Positions 1 to 13,855 of a DNA stretch of 18,787 bases are shown here, one piece after another. How positions within the stretch are numbered: position 1 is the stretch's first letter; each line of letters opens with the position of its first letter. The notes beneath the pieces are model-generated. The model was not told the origin of the DNA, searched no databases, and saw nothing but the letters and a program-made list of their open reading frames with translations. Made by a program: the position numbers and the translations under genes. Location: positions 1-18,787 of IMG/VR virus record IMGVR_UViG_2778261532_000018; one strand, given 5' to 3'. Source of the DNA: a virus (Duplodnaviria > Heunggongvirae > Uroviricota > Caudoviricetes).

Positions 1-411
1 ATGGATCAGGTAGTCATTTTTAAACAAATATTTGATAAAGTTCGAAACGATTTAAACTATCAATGGTTTTATTCTGAGCTAAAACGTCACAATGTCTCAC
101 ATTACATTTACTATTTAGCCACAGAGAATGTTCATATTGTATTAAAAAATGATAATATAGTGTTATTAAAGGGCCTAAAAAACATTGTGTCTGTCAAATT
201 TTCAAAGGATAGGCATCTTATAGAAACGACCTCTAATAAGCTGAAATCCAGAGAGATCACATTTCAGGAATACAGAAGAAACCTTGCTAAAGCAGGAGTT
301 TTTCGGTGGGTTACAAATATCCACGAACAAAAAAGATATTACTATACCTTTGATAAATCATTACTCTTTACTGAAAACATACAGAGCACATCACAAATAT
401 TTCCACACTAA
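1..411 (+). CDS. DUF1398-family (YbcV-like) prophage protein; ORF starts exactly at window edge so may be 5' partial
   Basis: 136-aa ORF on the strand opposite the lysis cassette, the position lambda uses for bor; resembles E. coli DLP12 YbcV as I recall it. Confidence 0.4.
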
Positions 412-709
412 ACCATAACGTCCGGTTTCTTCTACCCCAGCACCGGACTGGCTGACATGAAGAGCAACCCCGCGTTCAGTTGACGTGTTAATAACCCGGT
501 GTACATCGTTTTTGATTATTCCCCCACACTTGTGCAGAAGGAGTTCCCCGTCGGGCTACGGTCATGGTTAATGCGGGAATACAGCGACGATACAGCGCAT
601 TATGTGTCAGGCTTGAATACCTTTATCCGTTAAAAGGGATATCAGTTAAGTTATCCTGCGTAGGGTATAAGCCATTATCAAGCCCACCCGTAGATAGGCT
701 TTGTAATGG

Positions 710-967
710 CTACTTCGCTTTTGCTTCCGCTCGCTTACGCCGGCGCTCTTCTTTCCTCTCGGCTTTTGCCATGTCCATGAATGCCTGCATGATCGAGTTC
801 CGCATCATGTAGCTAACAAAGTGATGATTGACACAGCCGTTGAGGCGCAGCTGCTCGCCAAACTCATCCACCGAGGCCAATGCTTCCATCATGCCCTTCT
901 CGCCTTTCATGAACTCTGAGAAGTCGCGCCCCGCTCTGGAGGCGCATTCAATGACACGATCAATCAT
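710..967 (-). CDS. Hypothetical protein, translationally coupled to upstream KilA-N gene (possible C-terminal part of a split antirepressor-like gene)
   Basis: 85-aa ORF whose ATG overlaps the stop of the 964-1461 ORF in an ATGA motif (964-967). Confidence 0.35.
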   Translation of the reverse strand: MIDRVIECASRAGRDFSEFMKGEKGMMEALASVDEFGEQLRLNGCVNHHFVSYMMRNSIMQAFMDMAKAERKEERRRKRAEAKAK

Positions 968-1461
968 CCCGGAAGCCCGGGGATCGTAATCTGCAGCTGG
1001 TTAGCCAGGGAGTTAATCTCAGCGACCAACACTGGCTTCGTATAGCGCCATGCTGCCAGCCCTTGTCCGCAGAAGCTCGCCATGTCTTTCTTCTGGTCAA
1101 ACTCATGACATTTCATGTTGAGCTGCGCACTTAAGCTGTTGCGATGCTGAAGTTCTCCGGTGAAGTAGTCATCGAGGACTTTATAGGCCGCGTACTTGAA
1201 CCCGGGGTTTAGCCATGCTGCATAATCATAAGCAACAAACTTCCCGCCATATGTTCCACCGTGTACACCGCGCTCAGTAAAAACCACAGATTCGTGGTTT
1301 TTCTCCAGCTCGGCTAAGAACTCTTTGGTCTGCTTGTTTCGCAGGTAGTAGTACGGAGATTCAGATTCACTTTTACCACTGGCTTTCCACATATCAGTGA
1401 GGCAGATCATGCCATCTTCACCGATACGAATTGGTTGATTGAAGAGGGTTAATGATTTCAT
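964..1461 (-). CDS. KilA-N domain-containing protein
   Basis: 165-aa ORF, N-terminus MKSLTLFNQPIRIGEDGMICLTDMWKASGK resembles KilA-N/antirepressor N-terminal domains; ATG at 1461 with AGGT upstream. Confidence 0.5.
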   Translation of the reverse strand: MKSLTLFNQPIRIGEDGMICLTDMWKASGKSESESPYYYLRNKQTKEFLAELEKNHESVVFTERGVHGGTYGGKFVAYDYAAWLNPGFKYAAYKVLDDYFTGELQHRNSLSAQLNMKCHEFDQKKDMASFCGQGLAAWRYTKPVLVAEINSLANQLQITIPGLPG

Positions 1462-1575
1462 AGCGTATACCTACTCTTTGAAATGAACCTTTGCCGCACA
1501 GGAAACCAGCCCACCGAGGCTCGCCAGCACTAACTGGTATCCTCAAAGGCCCATTCCAAAGGGGCAGGTTCGGTG

Positions 1576-1602
1576 TAAAAAAACATGCGTTGCGGTACGC
1601 AT
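1576..1602 (-). terminator. Intrinsic terminator (second of tandem pair downstream of Rz)
   Basis: Minus strand reads ATGCGT-ACCGCA-ACGCAT followed by GTTTTTTT. Confidence 0.6.
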
Positions 1603-1609
1603 TTATTGC

Positions 1610-1632
1610 AAAAAAGCCCCGCATCGCGAGGC
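1610..1632 (-). terminator. Intrinsic terminator (first of tandem pair downstream of Rz)
   Basis: Minus strand reads GCCTCGC-GAT-GCGGGGC followed by TTTTTT. Confidence 0.6.
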
Positions 1633-1664
1633 TCATTAAATGGACTTTGTGATTTGCAAAAAAA

Positions 1665-1919
1665 TTATTTCAGGCATTGCGTCCTGATGTACTCCTGCAT
1701 TTCGATAGTCGCGTTAGCATCAGCAAGCTCCTTTGTATATCTGGCGTCGAGTTCTGCTACATCATGTTGACGCTTCTGCATGTCAGCGATTGTGGATGTG
1801 GCCTTATCGCGCTGCTCTTTGTAGGTAATGGCGTTATCACGGTAATGATTAACAGCCCATGACAGGCAGACGATGATGCAGATAACCAGAGCGGAGATAA
1901 TCGCGGTTACTCTGCTCAT
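1665..1919 (-). CDS. Rz: Rz i-spanin, internally shortened (84 aa versus about 153 aa in lambda)
   Basis: N-terminal 65-70 aa match lambda Rz including the TM segment ([34 protein letters not shown]); C-terminus resembles the lambda Rz end; the central region is absent. ATGA overlap with R stop. Confidence 0.75.
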
Positions 1920-2392
1920 ACCTCAATCTCTCTGACCATTCCGCCAGCTTCTTTGAATTTTGCAATCAGGTTGTCAGCCTTATGCTCGAACTGACCATAA
2001 CCAGCCCCCGGCAGTGAAGCCCAGATATTACTGCAACGGTCGATTGCCTGACGAATATCACCGCGGTCAATCATCGGTAAAGCGCCACGCTCTTTAATCT
2101 GCTGCAATGCCACAGCATCCTGACTTTTGGGAGAGAAGTCTTTCAGGCCAAGCTGCTTGCGATAGGCATCCCACCAACGGGAAAGAAGTTGGTAACGTCC
2201 GGCGGCTGTTGATTTGAGTTTTGGGTTTAGCGTGACAAGTTTGCGAGGGTGATCGGAGTAATCAGTGAATAGCTCTCCTCCTACAATGACGTCATAACCA
2301 TGATTTCTGGTTTTCTGACGTCCGTTATCAGTTCCCTCTGACCACGCCAGCATATCGAGGAACGCCTTACGTTGATTATTGATTTCCACCAT
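1916..2392 (-). CDS. R: Endolysin R (lytic transglycosylase)
   Basis: 158-aa product essentially matches lambda R ([45 protein letters not shown]...); start overlaps the end of S as in lambda. Confidence 0.95.
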
Positions 2393-2699
2393 CTTCTACT
2401 CCGGCTTTTTTAGCAGCGAAGCGTTTGATAAGCGAACCAATCGAGTCAGTACCGATGTAGCCGATGAACACGCTCGTTATATAAGCGAGATTGCTACTTA
2501 GTCCGGCGAAGTCGAGAAGGTCACGAATGAACCAGGCGATAATGGCGCACATCGTTGCGTCGATTACTGTTTTTGTAAACGCACCGCCATTATATCTGCC
2601 GCGAAGGTACGCCATTGCAAACGCAAGGATTGCCCCGATGCCTTGTTCCTTTGCCGCGAGAATGGCGGCTAACAGGTCATGTTTTTCTGGCATCTTCAT
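2376..2699 (-). CDS. S: Holin S (class I, dual-start S107/S105)
   Basis: 107-aa product matches lambda S ([39 protein letters not shown]...); the ATGAAGATG dual start motif is present. Confidence 0.95.
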
Positions 2700-2941: not shown

Positions 2942-3017
2942 TGGTGCTGGTTAACGGACTTGAACCGCTACCCATTCGCTTACAAGGCGACGGCTCTACC
3001 ATTGGAGCTAAACCAGC
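2942..3017 (-). tRNA. tRNA, predicted anticodon UGU (Thr)
   Basis: Manual cloverleaf on minus strand: acceptor GCTGGTT/AACCAGC 7/7 bp, D stem GCTC/GAGC, anticodon stem 4/5 bp with loop CTTGTAA, T arm AGCGG-TTCAAGT-CCGTT, discriminator A, encoded CCA. Confidence 0.6.
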
Positions 3018-3022
3018 ATATT

Positions 3023-3097
3023 TGGCGGGACAGCGTGGACTCGAACCACGATAAGAAGGTTAACAGCCTTCCGTAATGACCTTTATACGACTGACCC
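3023..3097 (-). tRNA. tRNA-like gene, predicted anticodon GUU (Asn-like); weaker fold
   Basis: Minus strand: anticodon arm GAAGG-CTGTTAA-CCTTC and T arm CGTGG-TTCGAGT-CCACG with loops identical to E. coli tRNA-Asn as I recall it; discriminator G, encoded CCA; one U-U mismatch each in acceptor and D stems; 4-nt variable loop. Confidence 0.45.
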
Positions 3098-3187: not shown

Positions 3188-3676
3188 CTATGCTACATGT
3201 TTAATTTTCTCTACACGTTTCCGGTTTTTAAACGCACTATCCAGAACCGGGCAAATCATAAACAACGAGGCATTAAGGATTTCGTCAACTTCCCGTCGAC
3301 AGGTTGCGAGCGATGGTTTTTGAATGCGCCCGCCGCCACGGCATAACATCTTGCGAGGTCTTGCGACGCGATGATAGTAAGATGCAATGGCGTGCTTGGA
3401 AGAACCATGAGCGTAGTAGCTGAGGAGGATGCCAAAGGCTTTCTTGTCAATGCACATGACGGAATCGACGACCTGAGAAATCAACATTCCATCATCATCA
3501 TTGCACATTGGCCTTGTCATAACTCTTCCCGGCTCTACGCTCTCCATGAACTTCGCTATTACGCTGCTCATACGCTTTTCCAGACGACCTGAATAAACCC
3601 ATGCGCCCCACAGTTCAAGCCAGCCATTCAGCCACTCATGCTGTTCTTTGGTGAGGTTTAGTTCTCTTATGCCCAC
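3188..3676 (-). CDS. Q: Late-gene antiterminator Q (non-lambda Q family, phage 82/21/933W-like)
   Basis: 162-aa ORF directly upstream of the late promoter/tRNA/S region; unrelated to lambda Q but resembles Q proteins of other lambdoid phages as I recall them. Confidence 0.7.
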
Positions 3677-13629: not shown

Positions 13630-13690
13630 ATGCATACCAATAACGCTTCACTCGAGGCGTTTTTCGTTATGTATAAATAAGGAGCACACC

Positions 13691-13855
13691 ATGCAATATG
13701 CCATTGCAGGGTGGCCTGTTGCTGGCTGCCCTTCCGAATCTTTACTTGAACGAATCACCCGTAAATTACGTGACGGATGGAAACGCCTTATCGACATACT
13801 TAATCAGCCAGGAGTCCCAAAAAATGGATCAAACACTTATGGCTATCCAGACTAA
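13691..13855 (+). CDS. cIII: CIII (FtsH inhibitor)
   Basis: 54-aa product [54 protein letters not shown] matches lambda CIII; AAGGAG SD. Confidence 0.95.
   Translation: MQYAIAGWPVAGCPSESLLERITRKLRDGWKRLIDILNQPGVPKNGSNTYGYPD

Follow-up and report, generated by a model that had tools for sequence, protein, structure and literature searches.

The gene pair described here is already known: it stands in public records and is annotated in phage HK620 as hkbK/hkbL, whose products share ~96% and 99% protein identity with those of our locus (ORF-A and ORF-B, respectively), with the same ATGA overlap of stop and start codons and in the same genomic slot. The same pair, again with the ATGA overlap and located between Rz and the packaging genes, is carried by the Stx phages 1717 and 2851 and by PhiR49_1, and phage ECP1 also has the pair between Rz and its packaging genes. 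In P22 and ES18, this slot between the lysis and packaging genes is occupied by rha. Rha (ORF201 of P22, also present in phi80) is encoded by a late-operon gene and is reported to be detrimental to lytic growth in hosts that lack IHF (PMC4936722). Lambdoid phages commonly have terminators within the late operon and stop/start overlaps of the ATGA type (PMC8022706), and the domains KilA-N, ORF11CD3, Phage_pRha, ANT and others were reported to form a domain-shuffling 'Bro network' (PMC10111431). In 2026, an 89-nt RNA of unknown function, P22F, was reported to be detected in P22-infected cells (PMC13397905).

The window, that is, the whole stretch of 18,787 nucleotides analysed here, represents a lambdoid (pro)phage whose late operon lies on the minus strand. 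The genes of the late operon around the pair, and the gene that faces it, are as follows.

3188-3676, minus strand (late operon): ORF of a Q-type antiterminator
2942-3097, minus strand, in the late-operon stretch: tRNA-Asn and tRNA-Thr
2376-2699, minus strand: holin
1916-2392, minus strand: endolysin
1665-1919, minus strand: Rz-like ORF
964-1461, minus strand: ORF-A, 165 aa, ATG start, with KilA-N and ORF11CD3 domains
710-967, minus strand: ORF-B, 85 aa, ATG start, with three helices and a basic (AK)n tail
1-411, plus strand: DUF1398 (ydfO/ybcV-like) gene, convergent with ORF-B

The earlier note had correctly described the pair as facing an opposite-strand ORF at 1-411, which is this DUF1398 gene. 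A 72-aa ORF at 1418-1636, which spans the leader RNA discussed below, was treated as spurious, as it is without a family match and overlaps structured RNA.

At the junction of the two genes, 'tcat' at 964-967 of the plus strand reads ATGA on the minus strand, where the TGA stop codon of ORF-A overlaps the ATG of ORF-B. We compared this junction in 92 related loci; contig searches gave 6 loci from genome contigs and near-identical relatives only from viral contigs, and the diversity came from annotated phage records. A 4-nt ATGA overlap behind a KilA-N+ORF11CD3 gene was present in 83 of the 92 loci, and a TGAnnATG junction with a 2-nt gap was found behind KilA-N+P63C proteins of 242-268 aa in 6 (HK022, mEp234, Klebsiella, Raoultella, Scandinavium and Trabulsiella). 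ORF-A was damaged in 3 loci. An in-frame fusion of ORF-A and ORF-B was seen in none of the 92, nor did any occur among the protein-search matches. HK97, which was fetched separately from these loci, also has a KilA-N gene and a small ORF. In phage phiEt88, ORF-A stands alone, with the same C-terminus and with the terminase genes directly after it. Because the same junction recurs in more than 80 independent assemblies, a sequencing error in the window is ruled out. At the level of sequence comparison, ORF-A and ORF-B are thus shown to be two separate, conserved cistrons.

The earlier note had offered two readings of the overlap, namely, one KilA-N gene of ~250 aa interrupted by a frameshift, or two coupled genes. 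A single KilA-N/antirepressor gene broken by a frameshift, either as a pseudogene or through sequencing error, would be consistent with the 4-nt overlap, with the summed length of ~250 aa, which is close to that of phrog_129 (273 positions), and with the database protein P0001, which joins part of ORF-A to ORF-B. However, P0001 was the sole joined protein found, is a singleton, and links its ORF-A fragment to ORF-B through an out-of-frame stretch. The position of the ORF-A stop codon is kept down to 51% identity, ORF-B constitutes a full-length stand-alone family (phrog_875), and the identical junction in 83 loci is accompanied by a different two-cistron junction in 6 more. Alignment with full-length KilA-N proteins, which the earlier note had proposed, also argues against a broken gene: comparison by hhalign of the ORF-B profile with the 242-aa KilA-N+P63C protein gave a probability of 0.1 and no similarity to its C-terminal part, and phrog_129 had no match to ORF-B. 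We therefore regard a broken single gene as highly improbable, and it is the reading as two coupled genes that agrees with the data, ORF-A and ORF-B being separate throughout. Even less credence, practically none, can be given to programmed ribosomal frameshifting at the overlap, by which an ORF-A-ORF-B fusion would be made besides the separate products. Such an event would be compatible with the overlap of 4 nt and with a hairpin of high G+C content in the junction region (955-995), but no canonical slippery heptamer was seen in the junction sequence, the hairpin is upstream of the stop codon and not downstream, and the partners of KilA-N+P63C proteins use the non-overlapping TGAnnATG, which means that no frameshift signal is conserved. 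As the two are separate, widely conserved accessory genes in their usual place, we reject the idea of a split gene and regard the finding as an ordinary one.

ORF-A contains a KilA-N domain (Pfam PF04383) at residues 9-101, with 56.1 bits against a gathering cut-off of 23.8, as had been supposed for the 165-aa ORF from the outset, and an ORF11CD3 domain (PF10549) at residues 109-161, with 50.5 bits against a cut-off of 25. A Pfam scan of ORF-A at E <= 1 detected these two domains only, with no ANT, AntA, P22_AR_N/C or Bro-N domain, and with no match to Phage_pRha (PF09669), the domain by which membership of the Rha family is judged. This domain composition fits the domain-shuffling 'Bro network' (PMC10111431). 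In the AlphaFold2 (AF2) model (mean pLDDT 85.5), an alpha/beta N-terminal domain is followed by a long two-helix hairpin, which corresponds to the ORF11CD3 part. ORF-A is the counterpart of HK620 hkbK and of the product labelled 'KilA-N-ORF11CD3' in phage PhiR49_1, and it covers positions 3-174 of phrog_129. Homologues of 165-189 aa, with 51-99% identity and a common ...QLQI.IPGL.. C-terminus, come from Escherichia, Salmonella, Pantoea, Cronobacter, Yersinia and the Erwinia phage phiEt88. The dN/dS ratio of 0.05-0.17, with dS saturated in distant pairs, points to purifying selection. A PDB sequence search returned nothing for ORF-A, and a Foldseek search of its model against PDB gave none with E < 0.1, the matches to DdrC, the Swi6 N-domain and I-DmoI not being significant. 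In PADLOC-DB 2.0, the only match of ORF-A was a weak one of 31 bits, at the KilA-N level, to PDC-S22, a candidate system, with none to a named defence family, and an NCBIfam search gave a family for neither ORF-A nor ORF-B.

ORF-B, the counterpart of hkbL of HK620, aligns end to end with phrog_875, a family of unknown function (residues 1-85 of 85, E 1.6e-53). Its homologues are stand-alone proteins, nearly all of 83-87 aa, from Escherichia, Enterobacter, Citrobacter, Klebsiella, Salmonella and Rouxiella, and the family is narrow: clustering at 50% identity gives 22 clusters in a set of 1.84 billion proteins. The AF2 model (mean pLDDT 92.8) has helices at residues 2-20, 26-42 and 48-84, the last of which ends in the basic tail. 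The N-terminus reads MIDRV in the window and MSDRV in HK620. As with ORF-A, purifying selection is indicated (dN/dS 0.05-0.32, dS saturated in distant pairs). G44 and C45 are invariant in the family, and C8, H48 and H49 are nearly so; from the conservation of C45, C8, H48 and H49, a metal site is conceivable. Searches for relatives of known structure or function were negative: Foldseek of the model against PDB and BFVD gave none with E < 0.1, a PDB sequence search gave nothing, and PADLOC-DB 2.0 gave no credible match. In two distant members of the family, matched weakly (E 3e-5 and 4e-4), a T5orf172/MUG113 domain is joined to an N-terminal region that resembles ORF-B.

ORF-B sits behind KilA-N proteins whether their C-terminal domain is ORF11CD3 or P63C, and is absent behind the Rha+ORF11CD3 genes of P22 and of two other loci (L009 and L100). 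Two genes were considered as its equivalents there and rejected: the 172-aa gene that follows the Rha+ORF11CD3 gene of Klebsiella (L009) is not ORF-B-like, and P22 orf80 is a DUF2560 gene (hkbM homologue) that is not adjacent to rha. Since ORF-B follows KilA-N proteins of both C-terminal types and not Rha+ORF11CD3, we infer a functional link to the KilA-N domain, for which ORF-B is a candidate partner protein. The occurrence of ORF-A without ORF-B in phiEt88 means that ORF-A does not need ORF-B.

The pair is framed by RNA structures, all on the minus strand.

1610-1634, minus strand: T1, an intrinsic terminator downstream of Rz, with stem GAGCCUCGC/GCGGGGCUU, loop GAU and six U
1459-1605, minus strand: structured 5' leader of ~145 nt, with hairpin P0, then an irregular hairpin P1-P4, ending at the ORF-A ATG (1459-1461)
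1576-1602, minus strand: T2, identical with leader hairpin P0, AUGCGU/ACGCAU plus seven U in this lineage
1570-1575, minus strand: segment a (CACCGA), just 5' of the long leader hairpin and complementary to a'
1512-1517, minus strand: segment a' (UCGGUG), in the apical loop of the leader hairpin
670-711, minus strand: 3' hairpin at the end of the cassette, directly after the ORF-B stop codon, with no clear U run

The leader folds with a minimum free energy of -53.5 kcal/mol, and none of 200 shuffled sequences was as stable; in this fold, the 3' arm of the hairpin reaches and covers the ribosome-binding site of ORF-A. Diverged versions of the leader were also seen ahead of ORF-A-type genes, namely, in HK620-like, mEp234/HK022, Klebsiella, Raoultella, Trabulsiella and Erwinia loci, and RNAalifold found compensatory changes in 9 of 17 predicted pairs. 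A covariance model (R1) was built from 12 leaders, and the window leader matches it with 91.7 bits (E 1e-19). Full-length matches to the model, with E values from 1e-9 to 1e-30, end at the start codons of several gene types. The start codon at the end of the match is ATG with one exception, where the model puts ACG just upstream of the annotated start. The genes that follow the leader matches are of the following kinds.

KilA-N+ORF11CD3 genes
KilA-N+P63C genes
Rha+ORF11CD3 genes (P22, IdasGreatGrand and a Klebsiella phage)
ES18 gene 79
A gene for a 188-190-aa protein with an apparent AntA-like N-terminus, as read from its sequence
Four genes resembling HNH-AP2 endonucleases, as read from their sequences, three of which are annotated as HNH/homing endonucleases
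One gene annotated 'tellurite resistance protein'

Among 30 aligned leaders, 88.4% of the cells pair, compared with 29-53% in slid controls, a paired fraction that is inflated because the alignment was fitted to the model. In the same model-fitted alignment, by which the counts are biased, 17 of 27 pairs changed on both sides, and the covariation score, likewise from a model-fitted alignment, was reached by none of 500 shuffles. Segments a and a' provide evidence that is independent of the model: each of the 23 distinct leaders keeps a Watson-Crick helix of 5-8 bp between them, and the helix occurs in 15 sequence variants. This helix may be either a pseudoknot or an alternative helix or fold. 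Together, the aligned leaders show a conserved, covarying structure, as judged from sequence variation. Rfam covariance models applied to both strands of the window between 400 and 1950 gave no match at E <= 1, and the same scan revealed no c4-like antisense RNA.

The core of the leader is ~95% identical to P22, where it stands before rha. The sequence of P22F (PMC13397905) is that of the long hairpin of the leader, a region over which P22 is ~95% identical to the window. P22F was reported in one phage, and the conserved fold, the a:a' helix and the spread before KilA-N, Rha and HNH genes were not found described in the literature searched. The leader may represent an undescribed class of cis-acting RNA of enterobacterial lambdoid phages, in which a hairpin that pairs with the ribosome-binding site, together with a:a', would gate the translation of DNA-binding or nuclease proteins that are potentially harmful (KilA-N, Rha, AntA-like and HNH) and are encoded in the late transcript, and would serve as a landing site for HNH homing, with ORF-B as a KilA-N-specific partner. 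We propose this broader view tentatively, as plausible but somewhat short of probable.

The earlier note had placed two tandem terminators ahead of the pair. Both hairpins are present, and the first of them looks real: in L078, L084 and HK620, judging by eye from the alignment of related loci, paired changes apparently maintain the stem of T1 (9 bp at 1614-1634, -14.1 kcal/mol, z -3.1), and T1 thus appears to be a conserved terminator. The second requires another interpretation. The stem of T2, at 1585-1602, comprises 6 bp (-6.9 kcal/mol), and this P0 hairpin is kept in the HK620, mEp234 and Klebsiella leaders without the U run, with helix 1 being 100% paired; T2 is therefore primarily a part of the leader and not a universal terminator. 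Across the region, terminator-like sites are not above chance (6 vs 3.6 +/- 1.9 expected). The hairpin at the 3' end of the cassette (-27.2 kcal/mol, z -5.05) is apparently kept by paired stem changes, again by eye, in L045, L013, L014 and L004. From Rz to ORF-A, a crude consensus scan of the minus strand detected no sigma-70-like site, and IHF consensus matches in the window (27 vs 23.7 expected) were not above chance. For comparison, a moron, as an autonomous unit of promoter, gene and terminator, would carry a sigma-70 promoter of its own upstream and a terminator downstream; in the cassette, this consensus scan gave no promoter-like site, and the 3' hairpin is without a clear U run.

The position of the pair, which had been called unusual for a regulatory gene, is in fact its regular one: the slot after Rz regularly holds either this cassette (HK620, Stx phages and PhiR49_1) or rha (P22 and ES18), and its position is the same with lambda-type and with P22-type packaging genes. 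Of 5426 complete E. coli genomes, 376 contain at least 80% of the window segment 600-1700. Homology to HK620 is limited to 673-1466 of the window, and hence the two genes move as one unit. In the Klebsiella phage RAH1, the cassette is located among tail genes.

As a whole, the locus is probably a horizontally exchanged accessory cassette of the late operon, with separate ORF-A and ORF-B cistrons that would be Q-dependent and leader-controlled and would encode a Rha-like regulator. The order of its parts is T1, the ~145-nt leader, ORF-A, ORF-B and the 3' hairpin. As the consensus scan gave no sign of an own promoter and T1 would block other transcription, the cassette would depend for its transcription entirely on RNA polymerase that is Q-modified and terminator-resistant and that starts from pR', and T1 would block stray transcription in lysogens. 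Pairing of the leader hairpin with the ribosome-binding site of ORF-A may keep translation low or may make processing or refolding necessary. ORF-B would be made by termination-reinitiation at the ATGA, in a fixed ratio to ORF-A, and would work with the KilA-N domain. ORF-A would bind DNA via KilA-N as a late-expressed regulator and, as suggested by its structural model, may oligomerise through the ORF11CD3 helical hairpin. By analogy with Rha, ORF-A is probably dose-sensitive and would be tolerated only at a low dose.

Two other functions were weighed against that of a Rha-like regulator. The first is an antirepressor module: acting alone or together with ORF-B, ORF-A would inactivate the repressor encoded by a different prophage or a satellite, in the manner of the Ant-type proteins of the Bro network. 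That ORF-A belongs to this network (PMC10111431) and that several records of relatives carry the annotation 'antirepressor' would suit such a role; however, these annotations are by similarity only, ORF-A has none of the ANT, AntA, P22_AR_N/C and Bro-N domains, and late-operon expression comes after the lysis-lysogeny decision of the phage itself, so that we consider an antirepressor unlikely. Alternatively, ORF-A may be a toxic effector with a coupled modulator, or may act in exclusion or abortive infection like BstA or P1 KilA, with ORF-B as an antidote or specificity factor. BstA has been described as a KilA-N defence protein (PMC8585504), and ORF-A carries this domain and has the weak 31-bit PADLOC match to candidate PDC-S22. 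Expression also looks tightly silenced, by the terminator and by a leader that sequesters the ribosome-binding site, and the same leader precedes nuclease genes. Nevertheless, the PADLOC match is weak and to no named defence family, ORF-A stands alone in phiEt88, and the crude consensus scan found no promoter for expression in lysogens; a toxic or exclusion function is accordingly judged quite unlikely.

The regulator cassette that we favour has several implications. A suspected pseudogene is removed, and the cassette is placed in a well-populated rha/kilA slot class of lambdoid late operons. The fact that ORF-B always travels with KilA-N proteins, whichever their C-terminal domain, leads to a testable hypothesis of a KilA-N partner. 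The leader offers a handle on how phages quiet dose-sensitive accessory genes within an operon that is transcribed at a high level; it may also account for the long-standing finding that expression of Rha must be restrained, and it gives the P22F small RNA a structural context.

Of the known systems close to the locus, HK620 has a leader that is a diverged variant of the structure found in the window. In HK97 (gp73), HK022 and mEp234, a KilA-N+P63C protein is followed by a homologue of ORF-B (84-96% identical), with the same class of leader and in the same slot; unlike ORF-A, KilA-N proteins of the HK022/mEp234 type have P63C and not ORF11CD3 at the C-terminus, and a 2-nt gap instead of the ATGA. 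In phage P1, icd and ant, a small ORF and a regulator gene, are likewise coupled by overlapping stop and start codons. The nin-region genes of lambdoid phages show ATGA couplings (PMC8022706) with the same kind of stop/start arrangement as ORF-A and ORF-B. In contrast to icd-ant and the nin-region couplings, the small ORF is here downstream of the regulator. P22 rha has the same slot and a ~95% identical leader, but there is no ORF-B in P22. P22 Rha consists of Phage_pRha (79.8 bits) and ORF11CD3; ORF-A shares the ORF11CD3 domain but has KilA-N as its N-terminal domain, and the two proteins are thus of one kind, differing in the DNA-binding domain at the N-terminus. By its predicted domains, ORF-A is an N-domain-swapped analogue of P22 Rha, and the slot, the leader and ORF11CD3 that the two have in common support, by analogy, the view that ORF-A may work like Rha, not that it is a member of the Rha family.

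The structured RNA leader in front of ORF-A, the KilA-N gene of the window, was conserved at about 145 nt among related phage loci, and the start codon of the downstream gene marked its 3' limit. Copies were found at the following positions:

Window, 1459-1605, minus strand: structured RNA
L002, 4787-4922: structured RNA
L003, 1630-1772: structured RNA
L096 (P22), 2174-2317: structured RNA
L098, 1959-2103: structured RNA
L099, 1970-2108 and 3254-3388: structured RNA

Covariation was strong in the leader and extended to the long-range helix a:a'; no Rfam family matched it when window 400-1950 was searched on both strands. The genes located behind the leader encode KilA-N, Rha and HNH-endonuclease proteins, one AntA-like protein, and one protein annotated as a "tellurite resistance protein". 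Four of these genes resemble HNH-AP2 endonucleases and are found in the following regions:

L013, 2547-3243
L098, 1959-2604
L099, 1970-2600
L084, 1005-1640

Three of the four carry an HNH or homing endonuclease annotation, and each lies directly 3' of a leader copy. In L013, a full leader is followed first by the endonuclease gene and then by the KilA-N gene, and a second copy of the leader's 3' part stands in front of the KilA-N gene. The endonuclease genes directly behind leader copies, together with the L013 arrangement, suggest that the leader serves as a homing or insertion site.

Several further features of the window lie within or around the ORF-A/ORF-B cassette:

670-711: strong hairpin directly 3' of the ORF-B stop codon, -27.2 kcal/mol, z -5
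710-740, minus strand: (Ala-Lys)n tail of ORF-B, variable in L017, L039, L053, L073 and L087
955-995, minus strand: CCCGG-GCUU-CCGGG, a G+C-rich hairpin (the 41-nt segment folds at -15 kcal/mol)
1418-1636, minus strand: 72-aa ORF across the leader and terminators
1665-1919, minus strand: Rz-like ORF, 84 aa

The ORF-B start codon coincides with the end of the G+C-rich hairpin, and the Klebsiella RAH1 junction carries a different small hairpin, GGCU-UGC-AGCC, in the same place; the junction hairpin may enforce translational coupling. Distant loci appear, among the sequences listed, to retain the hairpin behind ORF-B via paired stem changes. Since a clear U run was not seen in this hairpin, it is a candidate for a terminator, a stabiliser or a processing site alike. 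Owing to its C-terminal tail, ORF-B differs in length (85-95 aa) between loci that are nearly identical elsewhere, the kind of variation that slippage within a short GCN-AAR repeat would produce. Two weak, distant database relatives, P0189 and P0191, join an ORF-B-like N-terminal region to a T5orf172/MUG113 domain, fusions that link ORF-B to shuffled phage DNA-binding and nuclease modules.

The 72-aa ORF, for which a family search gave no match, is most likely spurious. The Rfam lambda cIII thermoregulator element was matched at full length (88.5 bits) at 13678-13736 on the plus strand. Rz of HK022 has 145 aa, whereas the Rz-like ORF of the window has just 84 aa, a difference that the in-frame loss of 183 nt from within the gene would explain. 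All best-matching complete E. coli genomes have the longer version, to which the window aligns as two separate segments over a span of about 469 nt. The deletion would also take out the embedded Rz1 lipoprotein frame, and the spanin of the window is probably defective.

In P22 (L096, NC_002371; 2246-2851), the annotated start of rha/ORF201 falls within the leader. According to the leader model, rha instead starts at record position 39644 and encodes 178 aa rather than 201. This start agrees with the Pfam domain position in P22 rha, and also fits the P22F small RNA, which was stated to end 6 nt before the rha start (PMC13397905) and whose sequence equals the leader core.
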